A stretch of DNA of 64,000 nucleotides from Raillietiella orientalis (Eukaryota), in NCBI GenBank assembly GCA_036172245.1, contig JAYWIR010000057.1, forward strand, positions 744,001-808,000. Direction: 5' to 3'. The notes beneath the pieces are model-generated. The model was not told the DNA's origin and did no database searches. It saw only the letters and a program-made list of their open reading frames with translations. A program made the position numbers and the translations under genes. Positions 22,981 to 64,000 of the stretch are shown here, piece after piece. Each line of letters starts with the position of its first letter. Within the stretch, counting starts at the first letter, position 1.

Positions 22981-22984
22981 ACAA

Positions 22985-24238: not shown

Positions 24239-24249
24239 AGCAACCCCTT

Positions 24250-42830: not shown

Positions 42831-44689
42831 AGCGGTCTTGCGTAGAAATGCACATCTTGAAGCGCACCGGAAGCACCGGAAGAGCGAAGGTTGGCTCATG
42901 CGCTTGCCTGTGGAAGTCGTTGCGGAACGGATGTGCATGGGAGCTCCTCCGTTATCATTCCAGAACCGAATTCGAGGTGAAGTGGATGATGGAAAGGTGA
43001 AGTGCGAGCGTAAGCTGCAGAGTGTAAGCTCCTGCAACTTTCGATTTGGAAACCGTGAAGAAATGTGGCTGCGGACAAAAGTTGTGGCTGAAGGTTGTGT
43101 GGATGCTGGAGTCGTAACGTGGCAAAGCATGGAAGCATTCGAATTGTTAATAGGGTGATGTTCGATGTCTGAAGAAAGGCGCGGTTAGCAGTGCTCAGTA
43201 GATGGCAAAGTAAACAGTTTTTTTTTTCTTTTGTAAGTTTCTGTGTGAATCTGGAAAGAAGGGAGTGCCGGAATTCTTGTGGTTTCCCTTAAAGTAATAT
43301 GGAATAAAGGAAGGAGTTAAAGCGAGCAGTCACATGGAATGTCGCTGTTTTGCAGTCATGGAAACGCAAGAAATTGGGAATTACCGAATTTGTGAAGTGC
43401 GTCTTGCGTTGGTTTCTCCTAGCACCTTTGCTGTGCCCTAGCACGTTTTGCCTTTCGTTTTGCTGGCTGATTCTTGAAAGAAGAGCCCTTGGATGGAAAA
43501 AGAAGAGGTGAGTCTTAAGGTTTTGATTCTTTTGATTAGATGGTTCAGTAAGACTTGGGCAGGTAATGGATTTCAGTAGGAGAGGTTGTGGAAATGCTAG
43601 AATTGTTTTTGCAGCACTGTGAAAGTATTGAGAGTTGCACGGTTTTTGCTCATCCCATGCTTTGTGACAGCAGGGTTCGCTGTGTTTATGAGATGTGCAG
43701 TACAGGGATGTGCATTTGGCCGAACTGCTTTGTAATGCACACTTATCCAGACACAGGGTTGGGTAACCATGCATGTTGCTTGGTGAAAGCGACATCTGGT
43801 GTTGCAGTGTCTCCAGGAAAGATTCATGTGAGATGACATCCTGTTTGATGTGAGGGCTGCTTGGACATGATACGGAAATGTCGGGTGCGCTTCTATTTCC
43901 TTTTGCGTGGAAAGCGCTCTTGAAAAGAGTATGCATTTAGAACAAGCCCCACAAAGTGCAAAGTTGGCAACGGTTAGGGAAATGGTGAGTGCTGTGGTTG
44001 TGCACTGTTCACTTGGAAGTTCACCTAAAGGTTATCTGTGTTTGCTGTCTTTTAAAGTTGCAGTTCCGAATCGGAATGGGTCAGGGTAATCAGTTCATAA
44101 TCAGTTCCCTGAGAAGAGATAAGGAAGTGTCTTGCTTCATTGCCTTAGATGATGTCTGGTGGCTGAGGGTGTCAAGTGGAAGGTGACGTGGATAATGACT
44201 GGTGTGTAGTGTAGTAGGAATTGTATCCAAGAACTGCTGGGAAAGGTGAATTACGTATTGAATGGTTTCTAGCATGGATGAGGGGATGTGCAAGTGTTGG
44301 CCTCGAGTACTTTACTCCAAATTCCACAATAATATAATAAATAATTTGAGTGGTGAGTTAACTGTCAGTGCCAGCTATGAAAATGTAACATTGATGAAGT
44401 ATATGTCTGGTCAGGATATACCTGATGATTTTGAGGCACATTGTCAGTCTGCAGTATGTCCAGACACAGGAGTTCTGAAAGCAGGAATGTTGGTGTACCA
44501 TGTGAAAAAGAAATATTTTTTGTTTAGAGGAAGCAGAGATGCAGCTAGGCAGGCTAATGCGACTTGGAGAGCTGCAGGTGCTGTGCTAATAAAAAGAAGT
44601 TGATTAATTTAGTTGTCTTTATTACTTTCTATTGGTTTGACATATAGGATAATGTTGCCATCATTCTCCATAATGAAGGAGGTTTCTTT

Positions 44690-45602
44690 CTGCTGGAGCT
44701 AGTTATATTGATGATCTTCGATCGATCAGTGCTTAGTTTGATGTAGTCTGGTTCCCAGTTGGCCGTAACTAGGACGTGTGGAGTGTCGAAGTATCTTATT
44801 GATATTTAGGATCAAAGATGATTTCGTTTTTCAAGCACTCAATGAAGCCGTATTGAATGGTTTTGTGGTTGTCTCTTGTAAAGTCAATGACTATTATGGG
44901 CTCTCCATTATGGGCTGCGTTGCTCTTGTTGCAACTTTCTAGATAAATTGCGTTACGTCTGAGAAAGAGATATTTTGTCAACGTAGGCTTGCCCCGTTTC
45001 CTCGTTCGTTCAGGATCCAGTATATTTCTCGGTGATGTGGTGGTTTGGAGAGTATATTCAGAACTTGGTGTTGCCACTGCCGTAACTGTAGAATCGCCAT
45101 TGGGTTCGGGAAGTGCTTCGCTCTGTAGAGGCCAAAGCACTCCTTGATGAACTGAATGTCCCTTGAATAAAATTTTGTATAATTTTCCAAGATAAAATTT
45201 TCTGATTTGTCGGATTGTATGAGGCGAAGTATCTGGACGAAAGAGATGTTACTAATGCGAGTGTATTGCTTTCTTACCCGGCGTTCGTAATTGTCGTTAG
45301 GGTTTTGGTCGAGTGTTGCATGAGTGCATATCTTTTTCACAATATTGAAGGTTAGCGTTGGCTAAACCTCTTGCGTGCTCCAAGTGAGAGCGCTTGAGCT
45401 GCGGTCTTCGCACTTGCGGCAGCATGAGAGGTTCATGCAATTGCATGCATCCTTGCTGGTGATGCGTATCGGTAGTGGTTGCTTTCTTCGCGATGATTGC
45501 GAAGGTTGCGTGTTGTTTGCACCACTGCTTGACGCGAGTGAGTTCATCTTCTGTCCAGTTGTGTATGGCGAAGCACCAGTTTGGGTAACGTGCGTAAAGC
45601 AT
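44690..45602 (-). pseudogene. rep: Endogenous CRESS-DNA virus Rep, copy 1 (HUH endonuclease plus SF3 helicase), frameshifted
   Basis: RCR motif I WCFAIHN, motif II HQQG, motif III YCEK. Walker A region EIYW..ERGNG/GKPTLTKYL, Walker B IIVIDFTR, then YGFIECLKN and motif C PHVLVTANWEPDYIKLSTDR, spread over several frames. Confidence 0.9.
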
Positions 45603-45668
45603 GCTTTTTGCGTACTACTGAAAAGCATGGTGTGCATGGTGAGTATTTATCAAATTTTCGGTGGCCAG

Positions 45669-45692
45669 GTGGTTATCAGTATTGTTATCCAC
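45669..45692 (+). promoter_or_regulatory. Degenerate CRESS origin-like hairpin upstream of Rep copy 1
   Basis: Stem GTGGTTA / TATCCAC (6 of 7 pairs) around a 10-nt loop TCAGTATTGT. The loop resembles TCAGTATTAC and the loop at 55518. It lies 67 nt upstream of the Rep ATG. Confidence 0.5.
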
Positions 45693-45719
45693 AGCTTAGT
45701 ACATGTGGCAAGTTGATTG

Positions 45720-47960
45720 GAGTAGAATTCACTCCTCTTGCATTCGAATTGCAGTCCCCATATAAGGTCATTGGTGTGTGGTGTTATGGTGGTTCACTTC
45801 AAGTCCAGGAAGCTTTCATTGGTAAAAGAATATGCTATTGATCCTTTGATGCTGTTTTCCTTACAGGCTATCCTGTAAGGAATTTGGTTTAGCAGGTTGC
45901 GCATCGAGTTATTTACTTGTAGATGGCCATGGGCCTGGGGTTTTCGTGACTTGCATGCTGCTGAACGTTGGGCAACTATGCATCAAGTGATCATACCATA
46001 GCAACTCCTCAGTTGAAGCAGCAATGTTGTGCAATGTGTAGGTTGTGGGAAATTTCGAGGGCTGCTGAAAGTGGAGTTCAGTTGTGCGCATCGTAGCTCG
46101 AATCTGAGCTTGTCGACACCCAAATACGTAGGTTGTTAATGGATCCCTTGATTCCTAGCTCCTGTGTTGAATGTGTAAGTGCAGAATCCACATTTTGCTA
46201 TTTTGAGCGTTGCGATGCTTTGCTAGAAAAGTGGAGGTGATTGATTGCCTTGGGCGCTGATTGAAATTCGTAGCCTTTGCTAACGTGAAGTGTCGGTCTT
46301 AGACGGTGAGAAGTGCACGTGCATTGTTAGTCACCGAAATGAATTTGTAGAGGTATAGGAATCGATGGCGGCTTTGGAAATATCTCGGCAACAAACATGC
46401 GTTGTATGGTGGTCGAATGCAGCACTTGAGGTTCCTGGAAATATCTGGTCGTAACACGATGAAGGCGGAAGAAAAGCGTTATGTTTGGTCGAACAATTCC
46501 AGTCTGCTTTGAAATAGGGGGTAGAATGAGTGCTTTTCGTTCGCCGGTTGGGATCTGGCTGGAAGGAATGTTGCCCAGTGGGGAAGCGTTCCGTAACATA
46601 AAATATGTGTTTAGTTTGTTACAGAATGCTGTGTTGGAATCTGCAAGTTAGAGCGGAGTGATTAAATACGGAAAATACGCAAAGGTGGGTAAAGAAGGTG
46701 TTATGTACTGCTTGAAGAAATCAGGAGTATATCTAGGAGCAAAGTTCTTTCATTGTTCATGTGATCAGCTCGATTCAGTTTTGGGCTGCGTCCTTTTGAG
46801 GGGAATAGGTACTAGAACAGCACATCGACAACTATCGTGAAGCCTGGTGCTTTGTGTGCTGTTATAATGTTTGCATATTTCCCTAGCTGCTTTCACCGCC
46901 CCACGTAGATTTCTCGTTTTCTGTTCTGATGAAATGAGGTTGTCTATAATACCTCGGAAAGCGGTGGACCAGGATGTGCGCACGCAGAGGACTGTTGATG
47001 AAAATTTCATAACTATTTTTGTTTAGATCTGACTATTTTTGTGGAGAGTTTCCAAAGAATCCTAAACGATACTGTGCTATTTAGAATATTGGTGAGAAGG
47101 AGCTTTGTGTCGTGGTATAGAGCATCGACCAAGCTGTGCTAGGTTTAAGGATTTTCGTGTCGTCATTCCAGAAACCTGGGTCGCTCATTGCCGCCGTTGG
47201 AATATTTGGATAGAATGCAATTTGCGAAAAAATATTTCGAGTCTGAAAAAGGAGTGAAATCGTGGCTGCGTAAAAAGATTTGGTGACAAGGTGTAGAGCT
47301 AAGCAATGTATCATTCATGGTTAGGTTTCTCACGTGGCAGTTCGAATGGCAAGTGAGAAAAAGAACAACTTATTGTAACGAAGGTGATAGATCGAGTGGA
47401 GCCTAAGCAAGGTTGTTCAGACGCTGAGTGACTTCTATGGATGCAGACCCAGGTTCGACAGGTCGCCTGTAATGTGTAGAGAAGTGGCAGAGGTGTTAGC
47501 CGCGAAGATAGGCAATAAACATATTTTGGATTGTAGATCTGCGCTGCATCCGGATGTAGCGTGCAGAATTGGGTATAGAATCTTGAGAAGCTTGTATGGT
47601 GAAACCGCAGCCACGATGTGTTGAGTTGGTGTGCTAATGATATCACAGTATCCTTATCTGTTAAAAGTATAGGCTCATTGTTTTTGTAACAGTGTTCGGT
47701 CGGATGGTAGGAGTATGTATGCAACTCCTCGGGTGGTAGTGGTTCGAACGATGGAAGGTGGTTCTCAGGCTGTTCGTCTAAAGTGTCCTCGATTTGACAC
47801 TGCTGGTGGCATGGAGGTGAAAGTGAATACTAGGGGTTTGAGTTATTTGGTGAGGCATGTTGCCGGCTTTACCGTCCCAAAGTCGTGGAGAGTTGATGAA
47901 TCAGTGGCTAAAGGGCTTCTGAAAACAAAAAGGCTAGACGATGGAGGGTTCATCGAAAGT
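45720..47960 (-). pseudogene. Heavily decayed coding relic, possibly a negative-strand RNA virus L (RdRp) segment
   Basis: A/C-rich minus strand like the flanking EVEs. Broken frames give weak hints of L features: FxSExL..FIN..DGK near 47900, LLPIF.(G)LTPLP near 47500, and KIVRS near 47030. Many stops and frameshifts. Confidence 0.3.
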
Positions 47961-48079
47961 TAAATTTTTTGTTTAAAGTAACTAGAAATTTTAATTGGCA
48001 ATAAAACTGTTTATGATCATTGGGATGGTAGGTCTAGTTTGTCGTCGGGAAGTCTTCCTTTGGTTTTCTTGTTTGTTTT

Positions 48080-48821
48080 CTAATGTGGGCGATGAGTCCC
48101 AGCAGGAGGGGACTGAAATCTCATCAAGGCATCCTGCGAGATTGTGACAGGTTTAGGGGGTGCACCAACTGTTCCTATCCCGAAGGATTCCAATATGCCT
48201 CGCATCTCTGCTAGTTCCAAAATTCGGAGGGTGCTACAATAATGCCCTAAGGTGTAGGCTATCTCCATACCTCGCCCATCCGACATAGTGACTTTGTCGA
48301 ACAGAGCTTTTCACACTTTGAGCGGAAAACCAGCTCCTTTGGTTTGATCTTTACGCACGTCCACATGGTGATTCGTCAACCACCATGAGACTTTTGTCGC
48401 AATCACTAGAACCATACAGTTCACTGCTGTTTGTTTATTGATTTGTGCCAAGCCTCCTGTACTTTGTGCGTTTGTCATCTCGTCTATCCCCAGTTGGGCG
48501 CCAATCTCCATCGGGCACCAAGTGCTGGTTAATTTTTCGGTATCTTATCATGTCATATGTGAATAGCGCATATATACCGTTTATCATAAGAGTGAGTGCT
48601 GCATCTTTCCAATACTTGGACTGGTATAACCAGCCAATAGCGGAAGCTGCAACGTTTTTCATGAACGCACTTTGGTTGGTAGGCAGGTATACGGGTGAGT
48701 TTTTTGTCTTCTGGCAACGCAATGTCCGTGTCAGTTGTCAGACCGAGCTCGATAGCTCTGGCAAAGCTGCCGAGAATCGGTCGTAATTGGTTTCAGCTTC
48801 TTGCTCAAACTGGTCAGCCAT
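48080..48821 (-). pseudogene. Endogenous negative-strand RNA virus nucleoprotein-like gene, copy 1 (qinvirus-like), 3'-truncated
   Basis: Frameshifted, intronless frames: AIGWLYQSKYWKDAALTLMINGIYALFTYDMIRY, NCMVLVIATKVSWWLTNHH, AYTLGHYCSTLRIL, DALMRFQSPPAGTHR. Paralogous to 56982-58020. The family call rests on recalled TNHHxG / GHxxST / PAGT motifs. Confidence 0.65.
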
Positions 48822-50644
48822 ATCGAGCAATTACTGCCTCAGGTCACTTTCAATTAAACACCTGTCAGAGTAAAAGGCATTAGTATGAAGATTGTTATGA
48901 ACCCCAATTGGTTTCCCCTCTTATGACTGGTTTTAGGATAGATGATAGGAACCCGCTAGATGGATACTGCAAATAATGTTTTGTTGAAATAATGTTTTGG
49001 TGGATAGGAGCAATATGAACAGCTGTTTAGTCCACTGCTTGGTACTAGTAGTCAAACGTGAAACTTGATTATGAGTAAATGCCGTTGACTCAGCTGTGAG
49101 ATTGCAATCAACATCAACATTTTCTCCATCAGCATTACGAGTGTGCATAACACCATACAGAAACAGACTGTACAGTTCATGGAGGCACAGTAGTTCCATT
49201 TCATCTAAATGGTACTGGGTAAACGTTGCTTATGTAGCTGGACTGGCATCAACACTTATATGTCGCTTCAGGTACTACTCAATGGGTTTTTAGATAAGCA
49301 ATAGCTGTTCATAGATAGCAAGGCATGTGACTAAATTCAGTGTTCGTGAGAACCAACAAAAAACTGGAATAGTTTCCCATACTGGAAATTAAAAAAAGTA
49401 AACTTTGTTTGGATTATTTACAGGATTTTATTTTGCTTTTACGGGATGTAGAACTACATCTCTTTAATGTACAATATCAGCGGCTTGTACTTTTGATTCC
49501 AGATTTATAAAATAATTTGTTCTTATTGTGTTGAGTAATGAAGTGAACAATCCAAATGTCAGACGACATCTTGTAGTTCGGGTCTGTATTTGCGAATACC
49601 ATGAGATGAGGTGGATTATAAAGCTTTACGTGCCCTTGTTATTTTATAGAGCATATACCATTTTTTATGGTTCCAATAAGTCAATAGTTTACTGTTTCTT
49701 GCGTCGCCTTTAGTCAAGTCTATGATGATGTTTTTTACGATGTTCATGAAGGATGAGTCTGCTTTCTTGCAGTTAGGTAGATCGCATCGTAGTTTATGTA
49801 GATGTGTTTTACAATAATGGTTGTTCCGCTGTTTTCCTGGTAGTCAGCGTACCAATGCATATCACGGTGGTTTGGTTCTTTGCATCGATGTGAGCACAAG
49901 AATACGTTGATTCTGATAGTGTTCCATCGTGATGATACCCATTTCGACGAACAATTGAACCACTAACCTCTCATCGAACTGGAATAGGCTAGCCATGTTT
50001 TCTGGAGTATTCTTGTTAGGTCAATTATAGGTTTTGTACACTAATATCTTGTAGGTGTTGAGTCCTACAGGCTGCTCTGCTATTGGTTGGATGTTTCGAT
50101 GAACCAGAGAGGGAAAGGTGGTATTATAGGGTGAAATGGGGAACACTACTTAGGTCTTGTGTTAGACGTTTTTCAATTTAGCAAGTACACCAGGAGCTTT
50201 CGCGCAGCACTAAGGCGCTGTATCTGCACATTCTGATGCTCCCGCTTATGCAAGGATGCAGGCAATTCCTGTTTGCGACGCTAGCAGGAATTTGCTGCGC
50301 CGAAAGCATTTTCGGCGCAGCAAATGTAGTTAGAAGTTGGAGTTTGTTATGGAGAGGTTGAGCATGCCAATGATAACAGGTGCACGTTTCCGGGCTGCTG
50401 GTTATCTTGTATCGGGTTCTAAATTCCGTACGTTTCACAGAAGTAGATGATTTCATAAGTGACTGCCCCAGGACTGCTTGCTAAGCGACCTGTCAGATTC
50501 GTCTCCCTGTTTCGTAGTTCAGTAGCACAGTCTTCAGTCGGACAAGGTATGGATGTCAGGCCGCTAATGTCAGGGCAGTAGGTAAACCCTCTGCTGTGAC
50601 ATTAGGGGCTATAGCGTTGACAATGAATACAACCCGGGCCAGAT

Positions 50645-53600
50645 TATATAGGCTTTATTCATTTAGTAATACAAAGTTTCCTCTGTGAGAGGCATTGATA
50701 TTGTTAGTATGCTACCTGTAAGCATGCACTGAAATTGTCATGAAATAGCGGGAACCGCACTTAGGGTAATGAATGGAGTCTTTGTCGTATTTTCACTCTG
50801 ATGGGGCGCACCCAGGGATGGTTTCTGCCGTCGGGGTATCAGCGAGAAGGGTTGTGGCCTGGGGGCTTATGGGGATCGCGGAACTCACGTTCGTTTCATG
50901 CCTTTTGATATGCCGCGAATAAATGTCTCTGGAGTAGGGTTGAAGATCCTGGTCAGCAGGGAGCATTGCGGATCTGCCCGTTGCAGTGCATCATAGCATA
51001 TCCTGTCTTCACCTGGAGAAGTGTTTTCACAGGAGGCTAGGTTTTGTGCGACCTCTTCAGGGAGGAGAGGGGAGAGGTCCAGGGCGTCTGCAGGCGGGAG
51101 GGAAGGAGTAGTGGCAAGGAATTGCACATCGAAGCTCTTCACTGCGTGAATGTTTTGGAAGTGCTCACGAATTTCAGTTAAGGGCACCGTGCATCGCCCT
51201 TTGTTAATACCTAGAATTTCCCTAATCGCACGCCTACGATTCATCCTATACATGTTCTGTAGGCGCACGCGGCCGCTTCGTCTCGCTTGACTGTTATGCC
51301 TGGAGGGATTTTTGGCGGGATTAAGTGTACGGGTTCTTTGCACATGGATCCGCGAGCGGAATTCCTGCAAGACAAGCAGCGTCTTTTCCCAAGTATCGAG
51401 GTCAGGGGTAAGCTTTGCGATGTCTTCGAGTTCCCGTATTAAATCGAAGTTCGGGATAATCGTTCCTTCAGGTTCAAGAAAGCCTTTTGTCGTTGGGTGT
51501 AGTATCTGTACTTTCGACCTGCCTTTCGGGCGTCGCGACTCACGTTTTCCCTGATCGAGGTTTTCATGTCTCGCACCTAAGGCTCTTCCAACAGGGGCCC
51601 TATCGGGCTGAGGGGGCCCATCAGCCATGGGGGATAACAGCATGTCGGGGGAGTGGCCCGTGTTGGAATCCTCAACAAGTGGGGAAAAAGTATTTCTTGT
51701 GGGGATTGGGAGGGGGGAGGCATGATGACGTCGGTACGCTCTCCCGACTTTTTCATGCCATCTTAAATGGTTCTGAAGGCCCTTCTCATTGGGGAAGGAA
51801 AGGGAGCAATGCTGTAGGGAGCAGGGATACCGTGACGCTTCGGGAGGTGGCAGCCTAGGGGTTTTGCGCCTGCAACGATGCAGGTGCGTCGGTAAGCTCA
51901 CAGTGAGCTTACATTTCCTACAAACCAGTTCATGTCTCGGCACGTGCATTCGGTGCACGCGAGAGAGATGACGTTTGAGAGATTGTAGGGTACGGCTGGC
52001 ATATGCAGTCAATGACTGCCAGGGGCAACCTGTCACGCAGCATCGCATATGACGGGGCATAGGAAACATGATCCGCAATACATGTTCCTCCGTCAGCACA
52101 AGCTCAGGGCTTCTAGGTTCGAGAGATAGCGATAGCAGTGGGGAAATCGTAGCCTTTTTGGGAAGTCTGGACGTTGCAGGCATACTGGACGTTGGACCGT
52201 GCGCAGAGTAGCGAGGTTGCTCAATACTGTATCACGGTCGGGAGTAAGTCTGGCTCTTTTTGCGACTTCGCGTACATAGGATAGTGAAACGGGGGGTGAT
52301 GGTCGCGATGGCACATATATGCCAAGCTCCGAGATGCAGCCCGCTGAAAGCGCAGGCGAACATAGGAGCTCTGTCGTTCTGGAGGCGGGGAGAGTTCGAT
52401 TAGGGATTGAACTGCAATTGGATTGCTTCGGGGAGTTAGCAGTTCGAGTTTCGCCGCGCACAGCACATTTCAGTTCCTCGGGGACAGCTTGAACAGCTTC
52501 ACCCAGTGCTTCATGTACTTCTATTGCTCGCGCAAGTATAGCAAGGTCTGTCTGGGATGGGGATGCAATAGTAGGTACGGAGCCGTTCGATGTATTCGGA
52601 GAAGGCGGAAGTGACGAGAGGGTGGGATTGCTGGAGGCAAAATCCCCTTTCGCCGTAGGGCTGGCGTTCTCTTCAGCTGGGTGAGCATCTTCAGACGTCA
52701 GCCTCGAATGCACCGATTCGTCACCTCCGTCCGTGTAATCAGACGACAGATTGTTCTTATCCTTGTGGATGATGCGAATGTGCCTGTCCAAGAGTTCCAA
52801 TCGGGAGAAGCTGTTTGGGCACACGCGGCACTTGTGTTCTAGCACATGGATTGCGGGGGGCAAGCATGTAGCCCTTTCCTTGCATACATGTACCATTGGC
52901 GAGGGGTTAGGGATAACAGAGTGGCAAGCGGAGCAGAGAACAACGACTTCAGTTACATTAATGCCATGGGTACGGCCGATATGTCTTTTGATACTACGGA
53001 GGCGATCTGATTGTGTCGGGGCGACCGAGCATCCTTGGCATCCATTAATCGGGCATATAAGAGGCCGAGGGGTAAGGGGACAGCACCAAAGGCGAGTTTC
53101 GGAATCCAAGAAACAGGCAGTGGTGGAAGTCGAGCAAGCCATGGAGAAGGAGTTTTCTTTCAGAGTAAAACCAACAAATAGTTATCGGAGTAAATAGGGG
53201 GAAAAAGGGTTAACCCGAGAGTTAATTGGGGGCTAATTTGGGGAAAAGGGAACAGTAAGGCTGAAGACCGGGAAGCGAGCGGCGCAAAAGGGGTCATGTA
53301 CAGTTATTGCCACAGGGACGTACGCGTGTATCAGGATTCGCATGGGAGAAGACGAGTTCGCTTAAATCTCCACCATAGCACATGTACCGATTGGTTTGCA
53401 TTCCAAAGGATGTGTACACTCACCTTGATACACTAAAGCTCTTCTAGTAATACTATTCACGAGCAGTAGTGACCAGGCGTCTTGAACAGCATTCATTAAA
53501 GGAGCAATAACAGTTGGGGAGGGATTAGGGACACAGATAGTGTAACCGGATACCCTTCGGCCATCACGTCCAGGACATCTGGGATCGTAGTCCGGGGTCA

Positions 53601-53822
53601 TAGTCCAGAGACAATCACTCACAAAACACAACTTTACATGATTTTCGCAAAAAATATTTATTTCAATATCACAATATAAAACATAAGAACATCGAGAAAA
53701 GCTAAATACACACAATTCACTAATCCACACTCATCAAAAGCGACAAAAGGGTAGCAGGCAATTAGCCCTTTCCCCTTGAATCAACGCGAGAGCTACGTCG
53801 AGGCACGTCCGTCCTACTCGAG
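50645..53822 (-). mobile_element. Utopia-type (NeSL/R2-group, U2-targeting) non-LTR retrotransposon, internally deleted
   Basis: Begins exactly after U2 GTGTAGT. ORFs 52093-53142 and 50885-52183 carry multiple zinc fingers and the pre-RT motifs RLQNMYRMNRRRAIREILG and NTSPGEDRICY. The sequence then jumps near 50940 to a C-terminal YSRDIYSRHI motif, a 3' UTR and AATAAA (50654-50659). Confidence 0.88.
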
Positions 53823-53860
53823 ACTACACTTTGATCTTAGCCAAAAGGCCGAGAAGCGAT
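53823..53860 (-). ncRNA. U2: 5' 38 nt of a U2 snRNA gene, interrupted or truncated
   Basis: Reverse complement reads ATCGCTTCTCGGCCTTTTGGCTAAGATCAAAGTGTAGT, the conserved U2 5' end including the branch-point recognition GTAGT. The expected continuation ATCTGTTCTT is replaced by retrotransposon sequence. Confidence 0.95.
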
Positions 53861-53970
53861 TGATACCTAGCCATGATACTTTCCCCAGGAACAGCTAAGT
53901 ATGGAAAGGAATATAAGTTAGGACTTTGCTCCCCTTGGGCCTACATTAAGGCTCATAACTTTTGCAGCAG

Positions 53971-54916
53971 TCAGTTCTTCTTGGAAAGAGATTTACTGGA
54001 TATGTTATTGATAATCCGTCTGTCCGTTGACATTTTGTTGTAGTCTGGTTCCCAATTATCGAAAACCAGTATGTGTGGTGGCTGAAAGTATTTAATGGAA
54101 CCTTGAGACTTGCCGTCGATGATGATACCGTTCTTTAGGCTTTCTATGAATCCATACTGCACATGTTCCTGGTTGTCCCGGGTGAAGTCAGTGACGAGAA
54201 TTCTCCGTTGTAGATATACCGCATCGGCCTTCCTGCAGGAAGGCATGTAGATGGCCTTTTTTTTAAGGAAGAGAAATTTGGCCATCCTTCTCTTCTCGGC
54301 GTTACCAACTGGGTCGTAAAACCAATATATTTTTCTCTCGTGAGGTTGATGTATAATGTCTAAGATTTTAAGTTGCCATTCTTTGAGCTGAAGATTAGCG
54401 AGTGGGTTGGGATGTGTTCTGCTGCGGGATAATCGGAAACATTCTTTTGTAAAGTTGATGTTCTTTGCGTAAAACTTCGTATGGTGCTTGAGAATGAACT
54501 GTTCGCCTGCGCCATTTTCGATGAGTTGTAGGATCTGAAAAGAAAATGACCTTGAAATAGTCAACTACGCAGTTTGCTTACTTCTTCTTCATAAGTTTTT
54601 GCTTCTGCATCTTCGTTCAGATCTCCGTAAACCCATGCTTCTTTGTCCTGCTTGGTGCAGTACTTCAAGTTGCTCTGAGGTGAACCTTTTGCCTTTTCCA
54701 GGTGACACTTGTGAAAAGGCTTTCGGTGCAAACCAGGCATTCTCCTCGGTTCCTTCAATTTAAAGTAGCCCTGTAGTGCGGTGTACCGGTATCTGCCGTT
54801 TCTCTGCCAATACAGGCAAAGTGGCAGTTGCATCTGCACATTGTTTGATAGCTCTGAAGTTTTCGGAGTAGTTATACAATGTAAGGCACCAATTGAAAAA
54901 AAAATGCATGAGGCAT
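53971..54916 (-). pseudogene. rep: Endogenous CRESS-DNA virus Rep, copy 2, frameshifted
   Basis: Motif I WCLTLYN, motif II LQGY, then HLEKAKGS and motif III YCTK. Helicase part IYWFYDPVGN, LVTDFTRD, YGFIESLKNG, PPHILVFDNWEPDYNKMSTDR. Clearly homologous to copy 1. Confidence 0.92.
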
Positions 54917-54963
54917 GTTGGTAATTCACTAATGGTGTGACTGTGGATCGGATGTTTGGTGGT

Positions 54964-55089
54964 TTATATACTAACACAGACCCAAATTATGAAAAGATGT
55001 CTTCAGACAGATGGATTGTGCATTTCATTAATGAATCAAAAAGAACAAGCAAATATCCAATAAGTAGTATGTGTTCTTCAGGACGTTAA
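54964..55089 (+). pseudogene. rep: C-terminal fragment of a third CRESS Rep, in opposite orientation
   Basis: Plus frame reads LYTNTDPNYEKMSSDRWIVHFINESK...GR-stop. It aligns to the motif C / arginine-finger end of Rep copies 1 and 2 (FDNWEPDYNKMSTDR). Too short for the ORF track. Confidence 0.8.
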
Positions 55090-55475
55090 TATCTTATATC
55101 CCTAAGTCCTTTGAATTGCCAATACAATTTTCTCCAAATTCTAAAAATTGGAGCATTTTTTTGAATAACATTATTTTCCAGGATATCATTCTGTTGAGCC
55201 CATTCAGCTGGAAACTTGAATCCCACTACATGCTTCGCTATTATAGAATGACCAATCAACACATAAGAGCTCATTTCAGTTTGCTTTTCAGTACTAAACC
55301 AAGGACATTTAGGTCGATAATATATCACAGAATCACCCTTAGATGTCACCACAGACTGCTTCTCAACACAACTTCTACAATACACAGACACATCTCTTTC
55401 TTTAAATTTATAAAAAAAGGAAGTCCTTTTGCTCTGATGCCAAGCTAAATTCTTCATGCATTCACTATACTTCAT
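55086..55475 (-). CDS. 129-aa open frame resembling the fusion domain of a rhabdovirus-type (class III) glycoprotein; fragment
   Basis: The spacing of C, C, P-x-C-x-W, H and W residues (SECMKNLAW...YC...YRPKCPWFST...GHSI...RIW) parallels VSV-type G as I recall it (TTCDFRWY...QC...PPQSCGY...PHHV...TTW). No signal peptide or TM segment. Alignment by eye only. Confidence 0.45.
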   Translation of the reverse strand: MKYSECMKNLAWHQSKRTSFFYKFKERDVSVYCRSCVEKQSVVTSKGDSVIYYRPKCPWFSTEKQTEMSSYVLIGHSIIAKHVVGFKFPAEWAQQNDILENNVIQKNAPIFRIWRKLYWQFKGLRDIRY

Positions 55476-55506
55476 ATCAACAAATTTAACTGCGTAGTTA
55501 GGCTGA

Positions 55507-55538
55507 GCGCAATCTGGTCAGTGTTACCCAGATTGCGC
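55507..55538 (+). promoter_or_regulatory. Rolling-circle replication origin stem-loop of CRESS type
   Basis: Perfect 11-bp stem GCGCAATCTGG / CCAGATTGCGC around a 10-nt loop TCAGTGTTAC, which contains the NAGTRTTAC-type nonanucleotide CAGTGTTAC. Flanking inverted repeat TAACTGCG (55487-55494) / CGCAGTTA (55536-55543). Lies about 420 nt from Rep sequence. Confidence 0.8.
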
Positions 55539-55559
55539 AGTTATCTGACCCTCTATTCA

Positions 55560-56810
55560 TCTCGTCCTGCATCACATCTTGGAGTGACCAAGGTTGAAAT
55601 TGACGCAGGGAGAGAAGATCTTCGGGACTGATTCCCTAAAATGCAGCCGAAGACTCAACAGATTCTAGCCGCCAATCATTAAAATTTAATGGGCGGCAGG
55701 AAATCCACGAATTGGCTTCCATCATTGAGGCTAGTTGCCTCAAAGGATGGGCAAAATCGTTTTGTGGCGCATGCCCGGCACCAAGGAAAGAAGTCCGTCA
55801 TTGCCGAGACCTCCATAGAAGGATGCGCGAAGGCACATAGAGCAGCGAAGTCGAAAGCTTGGAACAGTGTCAGCATCCTGAACTGCACTTGCATTCTGAT
55901 CCGCGCCATCGTCAGGATTCCAGAGGTGGCATCCCGAGGTTGAGCCATCAGGTCTTTCAGGCGGATCCTAGGCGTTTAGCCCGTTCTTTGGCGGCGTAGG
56001 GGGAGTACAAAAGAAAAAACAGGGTTCAGAGGACGGGGGCCACGAAGATGTTACAAATAGCCGCATGTTCCGGCAAGATAAACTAGCCATTAATTAAGGG
56101 GCTAGAGGCCAGCACTGCCTTATGAAGGCAGTCCGACCACGCCTCTTCGGCGCCGAAGTCGCCCAGTGGAACGCCAAGATAAGTTGGCGGCTTTTTTCCC
56201 GCTTTTACCGGCGAGCCGACGGTAAGCAGCACTGCTGGCTGGAGATCACGGTCGCCACCGTCCTCCATGGTGCTGCACGAATTCGAGTGCTCGTCTCCGG
56301 GTAGCGTCGTTTGACGCCCCGGGGTGAGCTTTCGCACCTTCGCGGTCTGCGCTGCGCGCCTCAGGGCCTTAGCCCGGCGCGCTACGGCTACCGCGCTGGT
56401 GATCCGACGTGCGGCGATCTCAGACTCCGTTTCAGAGTGTGATTGAAGCGCGGGAGCTTCGCTTCTCACCTATCGTGTCGATTCGGAGGTGCTCGCGGAT
56501 GGAATCCCGACACTTCCTTTTTCGCGATCACCGGAACATCGTTCCTGACGATCGCAGCTTTCGCGCTATGCGCAACTGCGGTGGTAGCCTTGGCATCGGC
56601 ATAGGGAACCTTCGCGCGAGTCTTCATCGCGCTACTGTTTCTTACATTGGAGAGGCTCTTGCAGTTAGGTTGCGGAGAATTTTTGGGAGATTTTGTTTTT
56701 CTCCCTTTCTACACAACCTTCCACCCTCCGTCCGTTCCCTCGGAGCGCTCCTCGACTTTCGTGAGCAACGCTACCGGGCTTTCCTCCCCAACCGCCTGGG
56801 GAAAAAAATA
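55560..56810 (-). mobile_element. Decayed, internally deleted copy of the same LINE family
   Basis: TYLGVPLGDF..WSDCLHKA and RDATSGILTMARIRMQVQFRMLTL match copies A and B. The upstream GC-rich part looks like 5'/ORF1 sequence. Confidence 0.75.
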
Positions 56811-56981
56811 AGCAGCCACGCCATCGCAAACAATAACTCAAGTTTTGTCGACTGCTTCAGGTTAATTGTGTGCAGCATAATAAATTACACACAGAACGTC
56901 AAACACATTTTATTGACTTACTCATATTATGTCAGGTCACAAATTTGAAATAATAACAGCATAAAGAGATCAATAGTTCCA

Positions 56982-58020
56982 TTACCGCATGGGTTCAGCT
57001 GCAGGCAGTATTTTTTCATGTTGCCTTAGCCTGACCGCCCTTGGAAATCTATGCTCAAAGTTACGTATGGCTTCGTGCAACTTGGTCCTGATGTCTGCTA
57101 CACGGTCAGTACCCAGTTGTGGCGTAATCATTTCAATGGGTCTGAACGACAACTCCTTCGGAAATTTCGTGCAGAAGGCTTCCCATTCAGGCGAGAAATC
57201 CTCCTTTGACTCAACAGCCTGTTGCGACATATGGAGCGATCAACAGAGTGTGGACTTAGGGTGTATATTAAGCATGAATGACCCAAGCCTTACCAACGTA
57301 GCATCTGCATCGTAGTCGTTGAAGTTGGTGCGGGCTTGACCGATGAGATATCTAGCTCCTATATGATAATACTTAGCGTTTGGCATAGTACTCGCATAGC
57401 ACACGCCCATGAACACCATATTCTCAGGACAGTTTGCAGCTTGCGCCCAATTGACCAGACGTTTGAATGCCTGGTACGCCACTGCATGCCGATGAGTTCC
57501 AGCAGGTGGGGACAGGAATCGAAGCAGAGCATCCTGGGATATAGTCACGGGTTTAAATGAGGGTCCTTGGACTGTGAAAGGCACTGATTCAATCATATGG
57601 GCAAATCCTGCCAGCTCCAGCACACGAAGAGTACTGCAAAAGTGACCTAATGTATGGGCCACATCCATCCCCTTCTTTTAAGATCTTTATCTTGCAAACA
57701 AAGAGCGCCAGACTTTTAGAGGATACCCTGCACCTCTAGTGTTATCTTCCCGGATACCGGTGTGATGATTAGTCAGCGACCATGACACTTTTGTAGCTAT
57801 AACTAGGACCATGCAATTCGTCGCTAGTTGCTGATTCAGGGCAGCTTGGCTGGCTGTTCGTTGGGCTGGTGTCAAATCATGCCGTTGAGGAGTTGGTCGC
57901 CAGTCTCCATCCGGTATTAATACACCATTAATGGACCTATACCGAATCATATCATAGGTTAGCAGAGCATATATGCCGTTGATCATCAGCGTCAATTGCG
58001 CATCTTTGTATTGCTTGGTG
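56982..58020 (-). pseudogene. Endogenous negative-strand RNA virus nucleoprotein-like gene, copy 2 (qinvirus-like), 5'-truncated at a LINE 3' end
   Basis: Three consecutive ORFs (57687-58031, 57240-57668, 56982-57230) contain KDAQLTLMINGIYALLTYDMIRY, ATKVSWSLTNHHTG, AHTLGHFCSTLRVL, LRFLSPPAGTHRHAV and YHIGARYL. Confidence 0.68.
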
Positions 58021-58021
58021 C

Positions 58022-60922
58022 TGTTTATCACCCGGGTGCGCCGGGGCGTTTATTACAAAACTATCCGGGAACAGAGTTCCCGAACAAGGAATACAGAAAA
58101 GACGAAGGAGGGGGGTCCCCGACACGCAGGTCGGTATACAGAAAGTCCGGAACTGGAGGGAGGGAACCACAAATACACAGATAAAAAACAGAAATAAAGA
58201 TATGGGGAAGGTAGGGACAGGGTACTTTGGTACGGCCGTTCCTTCCTTTCAGAACCGCCGATGGATGCCGGCGATCTCTCTCCTCACGCCCTCTGGTAGA
58301 TGGGCCCACTCGGCAGCCGACGACATGCTCGCGCTGGCTAATCCGGTGGGCTGACGAAGAATGGCAAGCTTCTCCAACTCTCGGTGGGCCTTGTCGATGG
58401 CGTGGGTGCAACAGACCGTTGCGATGACAGCACCTAACGACAGGCCGCCTGGCATGAAGAAGCGGCTCATCAAGTCTCTCGCGGTGTCCCCCTGGTGCAG
58501 GAGAGCGGAGGACAGCCTCCGCCACAGTCCTAGGAGGGCACCGCAGTCCAGGATCAGGTGCGGGAACGTTTCCACTTCCCCGCACTGCTTACAGTTTGGG
58601 GAGACAACTCCCCCGGAGACACGGTTCGTCCGCTGGCTGGAGTGAAAACCCCAATGCACCAGCATGATGACGTCATGCTTCCATGAAAGGGGTAACAGAA
58701 GTGTTCAAACAGGAGGGAGGGACCACAAGTTCTTCGGGGGCACACTCAAGTGTTCACTCCACCGAAGGAGTCCCTTCGGGATGTGGCCAGGCGTGGCGGA
58801 GTCTGCTAGCTCGCAAGTCCTCCAGCCGCCAATGTGTCGTGTTGTTCCTGCGATAGTGCGGGCGACCTCCCATCTCGCCGGTTCGCAGCTGTCATCTCTT
58901 GCCCTGAGGGCTGACAGCATGTCGGCGAGGGGCGTGACGGCCAGGCGAGTCCACTTCTGGCTGTTGCACACCTCATCCACCGTGCAGTACGGGGAGAGGT
59001 GAACCTAACGGAGTTCCAGGAGGGAAACATCTTGGTGCTTTGCCCAGCCATGCAACGGTTCCTGCCACCAAACTTCAAAGTTCGTTGGGCGACAGGGAAT
59101 CCATTCCTGGGCTGCCGGGAGCCGGTAGAGGGTTTTCAACGGGAAACCGTCGCTCCTCGTGGCGCGCTCCGTATGCGGCCGCAGCGACAGAAGTTCATCG
59201 CTGCCGGTGCAGCGCCGCAGGAGCAGACGCGCAGGAGCGAACCACGGGGTGGACCAAAGGTTGGCGCACAGGGTCAACATCCGAAACTGCACCTGCAGCT
59301 CCATTCTCTCCAGCGTCAGGATACCTAAGTTTGCATCCCGACGCGGAGCCGCGAAGTCTTTGAGGCGGATCCTGGACCTCGCAGGTCCCCACAGAGCGTT
59401 CCTCAACAGGCTGTGCGCCTGGAGCTTGGCCGAGTAGGGGGCCGGGCAAACAAAAAGCAGGGGTCGCAAGAGGGGGGCAACGAAGGTGTTAAATATCGCG
59501 GCCCGCTCCGACAGGAGGAACCTGCTATCGTGAAACGGGCTCAGAGCACTCGTAGCCTTCCGAAGGCAGTCCGACCACTTCCACTGAGCTGATGTTCTCC
59601 AGCAGAACGCCCAGATACTGGATGCAGGAAGCGGTCCGGATCCCCAGGCGGATCCAGTCGGACTGCCCCTCTCACGCCGCACCAATACGAACGACCACGC
59701 TCTTGCTCCGGTTTACGCTCATACCCGCTCCCCTGCGAATCAGCTCGAAGAAATTATCGAGACTGGACGCCGGGGTGGTCATGGGTAAAAGGAGAAGCAG
59801 GTCGTCGGCATAGACCGCCACGGCCGGAGTTCCCGGACAGGAGCTCGGCAGGTTGGCCAGAGTCAGCCTGTACGCCCTCAGCACCAACTCAAAGAAGATG
59901 CTGAAGAGCAGGGCGCTTAAGCTGTCTCCCTGCCTGATACCCCGCCCTATGGGAACGCCGTACACGTGGCGCCCGCTGAAAGAGATATAGCATAGCGCGT
60001 GGCGCCTGCAGGAGCGCAAGTAGGCGATGAGGTGCGTCGGGTGACCTAGGCGTTCCAGAATCTCCAGAAGGAGATCCTGGTTTACGCTGTCGAGCACTTT
60101 GCAGAGATCGACGGCGACCGTTAAGGCACCCGGCGTTCCATCGTGCCCTGAACACCGCCGCTTACCTTTGGCAGTGGCGATTTCGGCTGCCTGGCTCTGC
60201 TGCGCCACGCGCTGCTGCAACTCGAACCATGTTCGCGCGAGGAAGAGATTCGCGTCCATGCACCGCCCCGTCTGCTCCGGACTTACCAAGGACTCCGCGA
60301 TTCTCCCCAGCCGCGCGACCCATAGCTTCGAGAAGAACTTGACGTCCGAAGTCACTAAGGTGATCGGACGCCAGTTGCTGAGGTGGCGGAAATCCCAGCC
60401 TTTCGGCAGGAGCCGCACCTTTGCTTAGCGGAAAGAAGCGGCAACATATCCCGTCTCCCGCATCAGCGAGGAAAGACTCAGCACCAGGGGGACGAGCTCC
60501 GACGCGAAGCACTGAAAGAACTCCGCGGGCAGGCCATACGTGCACAGCTGGCCAACGAGATGTGCGCTGCCATGAACGCGCGCAACTTGTTGGCCGGTGA
60601 CGCCGGGAAAAATACGAGGATCGACCACATGTTCCTCGACAACCACCTGTGTTCGTGGGTGGGAAATCGAGGCGCAGTGCCATTCGAACTTGCCGACCAT
60701 CCCCGGCTTGTGCTAGAGATACACCCGCGCGGTAGAGGTACACCCTCCACAGCGTGTCGTTTGCCAGGGGACTGGTTGCGCCTCGCAAGAGCAGCGCAAC
60801 ATCTTCGCTCGTTCCTGCAAGGCTTCCATCTGCAGTTGCTCGCGGACTGGGACGACTTCAAGAGCTCAGTCCGCGAGTTCTGCGACCAGTTTCCCCTAAA
60901 CCGTCTCCCTCCAGGTTTCGGT
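58022..60922 (-). mobile_element. L1/Tx1-like LINE, copy B, with an inverted 5' segment (about 60540-60922) encoding the end of the APE domain
   Basis: Minus-strand RT: NWRPITLV, GIRQGDSLSALLF, VYADDL, CKQCGEVETFPHLILDC. Plus-strand TRIDHMFLD...ADH is the AP-endonuclease C-terminus. Confidence 0.9.
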
Positions 60923-60924
60923 GT

Positions 60925-63900
60925 TGCCACCCGTGTACGCCCGGGGCGTTTATTGAAAACTACAAAAACATTAAACTAGGCCCCACTAACGGCCGCACAG
61001 CACCGAACCTGGCGGAACGCCGGGACGGAGCCCGGCATGACGCTCCTCGGCAGTGGAGGGGGATGGGGAATAAAACAAAAATAAAAATAAAGATATAGAA
61101 AACCAAAAAGAGTTTGGAGGGAGGGGAAGGGATCATTGTCCACTAGGAGGAGGGCCCATCCTTCGCAGGATGCCCTCCAGGTCCATCTTCATGCTTCCCA
61201 GATGGGGCCATCTCGCAGCTCTCCGCATGAAGCAGACCGCATACGGGATGACTACCCTCTCGTTGGCATCCACTGCGTCGCGAATGTCGCTCCACGCCGA
61301 CACGATGCCTCGGATGCAGCAGAGGTCCCCGAGGGCTGCGGCGGGCTGCAGGGCGTCCCGCACGAAGAGGGGCCGAAGAACGTCTCTGGGCGTGCTGCCC
61401 ATTGGGAGCCCGAGTGTCGTCCCGAACCGTTCCCTCAGGGTTCGGAAAGCAGCACAGTCAACTAGTAGGTGGGAGAGCGATTCCCGCTCCCCACACCTGG
61501 CCCACTCAGGGCTTACACTTCCTCGCGTGCAGTGGAAGCGGCGCGCGTTGCAGGGTATACCCCAGTGCAACAGCAGCAGCGCCGTCTCTTGCCACTTTAG
61601 AGGGAGAAAACTGGATCCGATGAGAATTGGGGGCCACTTGAGGTCATCCGTCGGGATGCCGAGCAGCTCGCCCCATCTCAGAAGTCCACGTGGGAGGGCA
61701 CTAGGGGTCGTGGCGTCTGCCAGTTCTCCCATGGTCCAGCCGCTCATCTTTTTTCCCTTCCTGCGATTCAGCAGGAGACTTGCCACTTTGGCGTCCGGCC
61801 GCTGGTTAAGGCCCTCCGTAGGAAGGGCAGCGTCGAAGCCAAAGGGGTGGTCTCCGCCCACGTGCTCCTGGCGGGACACTCCAGAGTAGTCCGTAGGGTG
61901 CAGCAGGCGTTGGGGACGAGTCGCAGGCGGTTCCATTCACGTCCAGTCTGAAGGTTCAGCTTGGCACACGTGCCAACGGATTCCTCCAGCCAGGCGGAGG
62001 AGTTGGCGGGGCTGCATACCGTCGAGCCGTTCTCTCTCACCAGGGATTCCATGCGCCCAAGGTGAAGGCCGCATTTTCTGAACTTCCGGCCGTGGCACAG
62101 AAGGTATGACGCGAGTCCTTGCGTCCTGGATACACGGCTGGCGAGGATGCGGGCTGGAAAGCACCAAGAGGTGCTTCATGTATTTGCTGCGATGGCGAGG
62201 GTGCGCCATTGCAGCTGTATGTGCAGGCGTTCCAGCGTCAAAGGGCCGAGACCGCCGTCCCGACGTGGAGCGCATAAGTCCTTTAGAGGCACACGTGGCC
62301 TCCCCATGCCCCAGAGGGCGATGCGGAGAAGGGCTTTCGTCCTCTTTTTCAACTCAGGGGAGACGGGGCACACAAAAAGCAGGGGGCGGAGGATGGTAGC
62401 CGCGAACGCGTTCCACACTGCGGCCCTTTCCGGCAGAAAGAACTTGCCTTCTAGGAACGGTCCGATTTCCAACTCTACCTTTTGGAGACGACCTGACCTG
62501 GCTTCTGCGAGGCAGAAGTCCCCCAACGGAACACCCAGGTACTTCAGGTACCTGGCCGTGGGAATCCCCATGCGGATCCAGTCAGGCCGTCGAGCCTACG
62601 TCGCACCCACCGGTACCACCGACGACTTCGCCTTGTTAACCTGCAATCCAGTCCCACGGCTTAGCAGATCGTAGAAATCCTCGACTGCGGTTGCCGGGGA
62701 GGACATGGGCAACATCAGCAGAAGATCGTCGGCGTATGCAGCTACTGCGGGCGTGCCAAGGCACCAGCTTGGTAAGGCAGCCAAAGTCACCCTGTACGCT
62801 CTCAGCACCAACTCAAAGTAGGTGCTGAAGAGCTGGGGACTGAGGCTATCGCCCTGCCGTATGCCCCGCCGCACCGGCATGCCGTACACCTGTTGGCTGG
62901 AAAAGCAGATGTTAACAATGGCGTGGCGCCAGTAGGAGCGCAGGAAGGAGAGAAGGGAGGGTGGGAAGCCCATGCGACCCAGGAGCTCCAACAGTAGCTC
63001 CTGGTCAACGCAGTCGAACGCCTTATGGAGATCGACCGCGATCGCTAGGGCCCCCTTCCCAGCCCGGGTGTCCATTCCCAGCCCAGCTGGCGGCCCCAAA
63101 GTGGGGTTGCCAATCTTTCCGCCAGTGTCGTTTAGGCAGCGCTGCACATGGAACCATGTGCTCGCGAAGAACAGGTTGGCATCCATACTTCTCCCGGGAA
63201 CAGCGTATGTCTGCTCCGGGCTAATTATGGAGTCTGCCACCTGTCCTAGACGCGAAGCCCACAGTCCAGCGACCAGCTTGGCGTCCGTATTCACAATTGT
63301 GATCGGACGCCAGTTGCCTAGGGATCTCAGGTCTCCTCCCTTCGGGAGGAGCCTCACACGGGCTGACCGAAACGAGGCGGGAACGTCGCCTTCGTCTCGG
63401 ATCAGCGCGGTCAACTGGAGCACCAGGGGGGCCAGCTCTGCTGCGAAGCATTGAAAAAATTCCGCAGGCAGGCCGTCCTTCCCTGGAGCCTTACGCCTCT
63501 TGAGCCTTTTAATACCGGCGAGAATTTCACCGGTAGAAAAAGGCTCGTTGAGGCTGTTCCTGTCCTCCTCCCCTATTGCCGGGGCTCCGTCCGGAAGCAG
63601 GAGCCGCGATGCGTCTCGCTCTGGGGGTGCCCTAGCGTAGAGGGAGGAATAGTAATGCCGCACGAGGCGCCTGATCGCGGGTGGGCCCGATCGCTCCCGG
63701 CCTTGGTCGTCCAGCAAGCTGGTCGACCCGGATTGCCAGGCTTGGCGCTGGGCTCCGGCTCGATATTCGGCCAGGCGACGGACATTGGGGGTCCTCTCGT
63801 ACCGGCGGGCCTGTAAATAGGCCGTTTGGTTCCGAACCCCCTCCCCAAATCCGGGGGGCAGGCGGTGCAGGGGAACTCCTCGCAGAACTCGCGGACCGAG

Positions 63901-64000
63901 TCCTCTAAGAGGTCCCAATCTATGAGACTGCGGAGGGTGACGCCTCTCAGGAATTTGCGAAGGTGTTCCTGCGCACCTGAGAGCCGCGTCCAGTCCCCAG
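60925..64000 (-). mobile_element. L1/Tx1-like LINE, copy A (RT, C-terminal Zn motif and 3' end); runs off the window
   Basis: ORF 62596-63918 has KAPGKDGLPAEFF, NWRPITIVNTDAKL, DLHKAFD, GIRQGDSLSPQLF and AYADDL. It is followed by KYLGVPL, GGLG and RCGERESLSHLLVDC. AATAAA plus a terminal hairpin at 60930-60954. Several frameshifts. Confidence 0.93.

Follow-up and report, generated by a model that had tools for sequence, protein, structure and literature searches.

Why should relics of two unrelated groups of viruses lie interleaved with retrotransposons, and mostly in one orientation, within some 21 kb of an animal chromosome? The question is raised by the right-hand part, from about position 43,200 onwards, of the window analysed here, by which we mean the whole 64,000-nt stretch of contig JAYWIR010000057.1 (assembly GCA_036172245.1, Raillietiella orientalis; positions 744,001 to 808,000, forward strand). 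We find this part of an invertebrate nuclear genome to be an insertion nest, in which fragments have been taken up repeatedly and kept. Judged by homology, the captured material includes at least three lineages of circular Rep-encoding single-stranded (CRESS) DNA virus and two lineages of qinvirus-like negative-strand RNA virus. The nest also holds site-specific (Utopia-like) and ordinary long interspersed nuclear element (LINE) retrotransposons, some of them nested in one another. In its architecture, the stretch is probably a new case of a known type of cluster in which endogenous viral elements (EVEs) and transposable elements (TEs) are stored together.

Blastn, tblastx and tblastn were used to look for similarity within the stretch and between it and the remainder of the window. 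One Pfam scan covered 150 of the 164 stop-to-stop open reading frames (ORFs) of at least 60 aa that end past position 43,000 (all but the first 4 and the last 10), and a second covered 106 ORFs of 35-59 aa in the parts without assignment. Every match to Rep, nucleocapsid (N) or capsid-like sequence in the window falls within 13.4 kb (44,683-58,016), with none elsewhere by tblastn, and Pfam found no viral domain among 150 of the 160 ORFs of at least 88 aa in the left 43 kb. From 64 to 43 kb on the minus strand, the fragments follow one another as LINE-A, LINE-B, N-A, LINE-C, ORF-X, the Rep tail (opposite strand), Rep2, the U2 stub, Utopia-like heads a and b, Rep3, N-B, Cap' (plus strand) and Rep1 (Table 1). 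Gaps without assignment lie between N-A and LINE-C (~0.5 kb), Utopia-like head b and Rep3 (1 kb), Rep3 and N-B (0.7 kb), and Cap' and Rep1 (2.1 kb), with another 1.5 kb beyond Rep1.

Table 1. Fragments assigned in the right-hand part of the window, in ascending window coordinates.
Feature	Position	Strand	Description
Skewed block	43001-48050		G-poor on the minus strand; holds Rep1 and Cap'
Rep1	44683-45614	-	CRESS-type Rep relic in three different frames; tblastn matches to the Rep2 halves
Cap'	about 47673-48000	+	Homologue of ORF-X; weak, putative capsid assignment
N-B	48089-48777	-	Qinvirus-like nucleocapsid relic, residues ~6-228; frameshifted, 3'-truncated
Rep3	49516-49878	-	C-terminal third of a more divergent Rep
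Utopia-like head b	50888-52231	-	N-terminal zinc-finger ORF, open 448-aa frame
Utopia-like head a	52096-53822	-	5' region and 362-aa zinc-finger ORF (52096-53181); directly downstream of U2 stub
U2 snRNA 5' stub	53823-53860	-	~37 nt of U2 small nuclear RNA (snRNA), ending at the published Utopia target region
Rep2	53974-54986	-	CRESS-type Rep relic with one frameshift near 54564
Rep tail	54950-55053	+	Last ~35 codons of a Rep; closest to Rep3 (translations compared)
ORF-X	55089-55517	-	143 aa; putative capsid gene fragment
LINE-C	55603-56469	-	Internal fragment of the same LINE family as LINE-A and LINE-B
N-A	56985-58022	-	Qinvirus-like nucleocapsid relic, residues ~57 to stop codon
LINE-B	58023-60940	-	5'-truncated LINE; RVT_1 E 1.2e-15
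LINE-A	60941-64000	-	Different subfamily, runs off the window end; RVT_1 E 4e-20 on 62599-63999(-)

The DNA-virus component is carried by four Rep fragments, two of which contain the N-terminal HUH endonuclease domain (Pfam Viral_Rep) above its gathering score: Rep1 at 45300-45614(-) (E 2.8e-8, 34.3 bits, cut-off 26) and Rep2 at 54564-54986(-) (E 7.2e-6, 26.6 bits, also above cut-off). The N-terminal halves of these two have the positions of a QG and a YCxK motif in common in their alignment. The other two fragments are C-terminal only. The C-terminal halves of Rep1, Rep2 and Rep3 are mutually homologous, with Rep3 aligning to residues 73-195 of the ORF at 53974-54564, the C-terminal half of Rep2, at 30% identity (tblastn, E 3e-14). 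The Rep tail in turn is 77% identical in nucleotides to the end of Rep3 (49517-49590) over 77 nt, in inverted orientation, and by these comparisons Rep3 and the Rep tail form a third Rep lineage. Neither Pfam, PDB, a word-indexed search of 5.8e9 proteins nor IMG/VR returned a match to the C-terminal half; its putative identity as a superfamily-3 helicase domain is suggested by its position and by Walker-like motifs read by eye.

A capsid gene may also be represented. Circovirus-like genomes have an ambisense rep/cap arrangement, and we read ORF-X as a putative capsid-gene fragment because it and the Rep tail converge tail-to-tail in just this layout, with ~35 nt between them; ORF-X itself has no match in Pfam, PHROGs or the Atlas. 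Cap', capsid-like over about 47770-48000(+), is linked to ORF-X by a single BLASTP comparison (15 of 39 positions identical, E 9e-7) and by a second collinear tblastx segment in another frame, and a weak, sub-threshold match to the Pfam family PSV_ORF131-like at 47673-47960(+) is treated as noise. A possible CRESS origin nonamer, AGTATTAC at 53447-53454(-), 0.5 kb downstream of Rep2, was rejected: the window holds 5 matches to it where 3.4 are expected, which is not significant, and a hairpin at this site is no better than those of shuffled sequences (z -0.25).

The RNA-virus component consists of N-A and N-B. With X placed at its stops, N-A (57069-58016(-)) matches five proteins. Four of them are unnamed (E 3.8e-36 to 7.8e-27), and the fifth, at E 1.2e-23, carries a name, as a hypothetical protein of Hubei qinvirus-like virus 1. 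N-A retains residues ~57-368 of a 376-residue protein in one frame (tblastn high-scoring segment pair (HSP) 57989-57162); two in-frame stops interrupt this match, a further two lie upstream of it, and LINE-B cuts the 5' end of N-A. N-B is recovered as three tblastn HSPs in different frames (queries P0003, P0004, P0005 and P0007). A profile of the N family gave no match against PDB sequences. Exogenous relatives were found in IMG/VR (two) and in metagenomes of the Joint Genome Institute (JGI; seven), and eight of these nine are near-full-length, each a contig of 1.6-2.2 kb whose single large ORF encodes N. Qinvirids have only two segments, L and S, the second of which encodes the nucleocapsid (ICTV profile of 2023, PMC10721934), and contigs of this size with a single ORF fit such an S segment. 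The chromosomal copies share with the S segment their homology to the protein of Hubei qinvirus-like virus 1, and their exogenous relatives are monocistronic. By contrast with a viral segment, the copies here are chromosomal and disrupted, through stops, frameshifts and a LINE. Identity is ~66% between the two and 30-39% between them and the exogenous proteins. The ninth relative, a partial fragment at positions 410-847 of a 3446-nt metagenome contig (L008), ends at about residue 228-231, the same residue as N-B. The sequence on either side of it resembles nothing in the window, and the fragment may be an EVE in another organism.

The original prediction, made from the letters of the stretch, had named three Rep relics, a short plus-strand '125-nt Rep tail' and two N-like genes, and each of these is confirmed by the matches above. 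A G-like fragment and a possible L relic, which it also listed, were not found: there was no glycoprotein-like match and no match resembling L or an RNA-dependent RNA polymerase (RdRP) in either Pfam scan.

The LINEs indicate that the nest is still growing. The last kilobase of LINE-B has an inverted copy at 23230-24238 that shares 92% identity with it (blastn), and this LINE family was therefore active recently. Comparison with the same copy sets the junction between the 3' end of LINE-B and N-A at 58022/58023; because N-A begins at the very next base, a young LINE must have inserted into an older N fossil in the same orientation. Insertion into the locus is thus ongoing and nested in a common orientation. 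LINE-A belongs to a different subfamily, with 66% nucleotide identity to LINE-B and 70% to 21139-22292 (blastn), and LINE-C is assigned by homology only, to the middle ORFs of LINE-B and LINE-A (tblastn, E 5e-15 and 7e-16). The 5' piece of LINE-B (~60550-60940, +) runs opposite to the remainder of that copy, as is expected when a LINE inserts by twin priming. The three LINE copies and the inverted piece, which had likewise been predicted, are all borne out by Pfam RVT_1, blastn and tblastn. Outside the nest, 21139-24524 forms a second accumulation of LINEs, on both strands, and includes the 1-kb 3' end at 23230-24238(+) that is 92% identical to LINE-B.

With one event counted per insertion, ten events lie on the minus strand (Rep1, Rep3, N-B, Utopia-b, Utopia-a, Rep2, LINE-C, N-A, LINE-B and LINE-A) and one on the plus strand (Cap'); the Rep tail with ORF-X is ambisense. 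Ten of the 11 orientable insertions are thus minus (two-sided binomial, 0.012), or 8 of 9 if Utopia a and b are merged and LINE-A and LINE-B are merged (0.039). LINE-like blocks in the other 43 kb number three plus and two minus. The strand bias is real, albeit on few and partly dependent events. It had been described beforehand as all-minus from 44.7 kb on, apart from the Rep tail and one LINE piece; the bias itself stands, and Cap' has to be added to the plus-strand exceptions. The accompanying statement that the fragments are packed almost without host sequence does not survive a sum over the list of parts, in which ~71% of the stretch is assigned to transposon or EVE fragments and ~6.0 of 20.8 kb (29%) has no assignment.

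What might generate such a bias? Dense fragments, mostly in one orientation, as present in 43.2-64 kb, are a feature of unidirectional (flamenco-type) PIWI-interacting RNA (piRNA) clusters. In Drosophila flamenco, nested transposon fragments lie in one orientation, antisense to the cluster transcript; these are mainly long terminal repeat (LTR)/gypsy fragments rather than viral EVEs, and the function of flamenco has been shown genetically. We tentatively propose, with a confidence that stops somewhat short of an even chance, that the stretch is a trap of this type, in which a plus-strand precursor feeds the production of antisense small RNAs. The viral and LINE fossils would be read in antisense by a long plus-strand transcript, which would be diced into PIWI-bound small RNAs directed against matching viruses and LINEs, and the insertions retained would be those in the orientation that yields antisense product. 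The transcript, the small RNAs and the protective effect we infer solely from resemblance to published loci.

That resemblance, which the original prediction had drawn to unistrand piRNA clusters, holds for the architecture: many independent fragments share one orientation, as in loci of Aedes and Ixodes. In Aedes aegypti, a 143-kb region carries TE-EVE hybrids on the same strand and is the source of a single antisense transcript as well as of phased piRNAs (Aguiar et al. 2020, PMC7161354). As described there, that cluster resembles ours in being a repeat-rich intergenic region whose TE-EVE hybrids lie on one coding strand, and in which EVEs from several virus groups are packed with retrotransposons, and it has features of its own, namely its 143-kb length, its LTR elements, the demonstrated single antisense transcript, the phased piRNAs and a Ci-site promoter. 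By comparison, our locus is visible over only ~21 kb, has non-LTR partners, contains CRESS and qin-like viruses and is known from sequence alone. In Ixodes scapularis, 32 of 143 integrated sequences from RNA viruses other than retroviruses (NIRVS) fall in predicted piRNA clusters that make up 0.46% of the genome, non-LTR elements are enriched two-fold in the sequence flanking the NIRVS, and antisense reads make up 90.9% of NIRVS small RNAs (Russo et al. 2019, PMC6580184). The tick and the present stretch have in common EVEs beside non-LTR retrotransposons and fossils of negative-strand RNA viruses. The tick NIRVS differ in being mostly replicase genes, from mononega-, bunya- and other RNA viruses, and a mixed nest of single-stranded DNA (ssDNA) virus and qinvirus is not described in the sections of that paper drawn on here (PMC6580184). 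In sea lice, piRNAs are reported from two qin-like sequences, for which the passage concerned in the sea-louse paper infers an EVE origin.

Several observations weigh against a piRNA cluster. About 29% of the stretch is without identification, and LINE-A runs through the window end, so that the visible locus is only ~21 kb. The orientation events are few and partly dependent, since the Utopia-like heads are tandem and LINE-A abuts LINE-B; the U2 stub determines on which strand the Utopia-like heads lie, and the conservative count of 8 of 9 gives a P value of only ~0.04. Finally, Cap' and the Rep tail are plus-strand exceptions, and with ambisense virus genes no single transcript can be antisense to all genes.

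Much of this would be expected of a passive graveyard, a gene-poor and perhaps heterochromatic or intronic region in which insertions are tolerated and decay slowly, with no small-RNA function. We regard this as a serious possibility, albeit one at clearly less than even probability. The bias would then stem from dependent insertions, either nested or site-directed, or from selection against sense elements in the intron of a plus-strand gene. Such selection inside introns is well known, and the antisense bias that it leaves is usually mild. A graveyard would suit the 29% without assignment and the lack of a recognised host exon nearby, the fixing of Utopia orientation by the U2 stub, the adjacency and nesting of LINE-A and LINE-B, the conservative binomial of only ~0.04, and the LINE-rich left 43 kb, which suggests that the whole neighbourhood tolerates repeats. 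It sits less easily with a bias of 10 to 1, against the mild bias usual for introns, or with the LINE pieces of the left 43 kb, which show no bias. Moreover, random integration would hardly place at least five independent captures, from two unrelated virus groups, within 13.4 kb.

Two pairs of fragments recur in the stretch with the same order, strand and, within ~100 bp, spacing: 44683-45614 with 53974-54986 (Rep) and 48089-48620 with 57489-58019 (N).

An archive of at least five captures presupposes that these paired copies are separate. A single composite integration, later duplicated and rearranged, would instead reduce the archive to one or two events, and this rival draws on the near-equal offsets between Rep1 and Rep2 (9297-9318) and between N-B and N-A (9397-9400), with order and strand also shared, as well as on the inverted, 77%-identical match between Rep3 and the Rep tail, which would fit local rearrangement. 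We consider it improbable on the evidence of codon positions. Over 170 codons, N-A and N-B have an amino-acid identity of 0.665, with proportions of nonsynonymous and synonymous differences (pN and pS) of 0.23 and 0.81; over 217 codons, the values for Rep1 and Rep2 are 0.51, 0.33 and 0.91. Identity at codon positions 1, 2 and 3 is 0.69, 0.825 and 0.37 for N and 0.59, 0.70 and 0.37 for Rep. A young LINE pair, as a control, gives 0.93, 0.95 and 0.89, and for two LINE subfamilies whose divergence took place while they were active the values are ~0.67, 0.83 and 0.50. The HSPs used were picked by tblastx, which favours conserved stretches, but the three-fold contrast between codon positions is too large for an artefact of that selection. 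Synonymous sites are saturated and the proteins conserved, from which it follows that both copies of a pair were functional genes while they diverged and that they entered the genome separately. Judged by this pattern, the paired Rep and N copies are separate captures that diverged under purifying selection, most simply as related viruses, and not decayed duplicates, a conclusion that is new here. Adding the third Rep lineage, that of Rep3 and the Rep tail, brings the independent viral acquisitions recorded in the 13.4 kb to at least five.

Neutral tandem duplication of a Rep and N unit was rejected on the codon-position pattern together with the spacers of the two pairs, which show no homology on plain, purine-collapsed or pyrimidine-collapsed diagonals or at the protein level. 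The copy-2 spacer also contains LINE-C, a later arrival that makes the equal spacing unlikely to be ancestral. Because the spacers are unrelated and one of them holds LINE-C, we regard the equal spacing as probably coincidental, at a chance level that we estimate as roughly 0.01-0.05. That Rep and N were instead linked in the donor, an unknown chimeric ssDNA element with a qinvirus-type nucleocapsid gene of which two diverged relatives integrated, would make it a new kind of RNA-DNA virus hybrid, for which cruciviruses are an analogous chimeric ssDNA case, and would account for two N-then-Rep pairs of like order, strand and spacing (within ~100 bp) in which both genes diverged under purifying selection, but it is very improbable, given that the eight near-full-length exogenous N relatives have one large ORF and no Rep match to the window, that other fragments (Cap, Rep tail, LINE-C) occupy the spacers, which are unrelated to each other, and that the spacing match has the chance level just given.

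Among the retroelements, the site-specific component is anchored by the U2 stub, which contains an exact 26-nt stretch of the U2 5' region at 53831-53856(-), where none is expected by chance, and reaches 39 bits in Rfam (U2, E 2.6e-4), short of the gathering score of 46. Among the motifs of the published Utopia target region are TGTAGTATCTG and TCTGTTCTT (Kojima and Jurka 2015, PMC4640811). Like Utopia as described in that paper, the elements here are flanked on the 5' side by U2 sequence, at the target region given there, and carry N-terminal zinc fingers, of which Utopia has one to three; for the arthropod families, its relevant passages report tandem insertions and no target-site duplications (PMC4640811). 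Unlike Utopia, both copies are 3'-truncated and have neither reverse transcriptase (RT) nor restriction-like endonuclease: in 49.8-53.9 kb, Pfam returned no RVT or endonuclease match among ORFs of at least 60 aa or of 35-59 aa, and the window holds no 3' U2 flank. The zf-C2H2 match of head b is weak (E 0.003, below cut-off), and the two heads are 22% identical over 303 aligned positions (E 1e-9). The earlier identification of Utopia is thus upheld by the U2 junction and two zinc-finger ORFs and lacks the RT and endonuclease in either copy; by junction and zinc fingers, we file the two heads as putatively 'Utopia-like' rather than as verified Utopia members. The tandem heads (50888-53822(-)) both end before the RT, the reverse of the usual 5' truncation of LINE copies.

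The left part of the nest stands out in base composition. From 43.0 to 48.05 kb, plus-strand GC skew runs at +0.19 to +0.34 per 500 bp and ends sharply near 48,050, and the minus strand has 1588 A (31%), 1401 C (28%), 1264 T (25%) and 797 G (16%). The right edge of this block coincides with the N-B/Cap' junction, where N-B is cut short. Rep1 and Rep2 both have a sense strand rich in A and poor in G, and the skew may therefore mark ssDNA-virus-derived sequence. The sign of the skew would also fit plus-strand transcription asymmetry, although such asymmetry is known to give skews far smaller than that of this block. Strand-specific hypermutation of the first copy was rejected as a cause, given that Rep1 and Rep2 have the same sense-strand composition and that substitution counts are symmetric. 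Within the block, the 215-aa ORF at 43292-43936(-) has no match in 1.84e9 proteins or in Pfam. Two sub-threshold matches are probably noise: an E3_UbLigase_RBR C-terminal domain at 45726-45875(+) (21.3 bits, cut-off 23) and a CxC3 cluster of KDZ transposases at 45912-46154(-) (19.4 bits, cut-off 26).

The only recognisable host gene in the window lies well to the left, where a single long exon at 13893-14708(+) encodes the C-terminal two thirds of mitochondrial methionyl-tRNA formyltransferase (MTFMT; Formyl_trans_N E 3e-15, Formyl_trans_C E 7e-5). Among the best 120 of 369 matches, Limulus (40%) and spiders (33-36%) come first, followed by insects and crustaceans. The protein is very divergent, with at most 40-42% identity to animal orthologues among the matches listed, and in a tree of 35 rows, hand-picked from the 120 listed matches, its branch is long and falls within no supported clade. 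The host Ixodes is a chelicerate, and chelicerates provide the best-scoring MTFMT among the matches listed, though the tree places the window protein with no group. From this gene, the host would be an invertebrate animal, possibly an arthropod. The suggestion that it might be a nematode, from a lineage lacking PIWI, receives no support, as the best MTFMT matches are arthropod and no nematode occurs in the best 120 of 369.

More broadly, the fossils are valuable whatever the function of the locus, in that the host range of qinvirids rests almost wholly on metatranscriptomes. Trypanosomatids are described as the only confirmed qinvirid hosts in one paper (PMC11108086), and the literature on qinvirus-derived EVEs, supplements aside and as far as the portions consulted extend, describes no genomic cluster of qinvirid nucleocapsid EVEs. 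Two chromosomal nucleocapsid copies of two lineages show that, on at least two occasions, qinvirus-like viruses entered this animal lineage's germ line, and the repeated capture, at one spot, of successive relatives of the same two virus groups offers a handle for dating a long association of host and virus. The picture of an EVE archive in a unidirectional piRNA cluster has so far been documented mainly in mosquitoes and a tick. If antisense small RNAs are made from the stretch, that picture would come to include two further groups of viruses, the CRESS-DNA viruses and the qinvirids, as well as an additional invertebrate lineage that has been poorly sampled.

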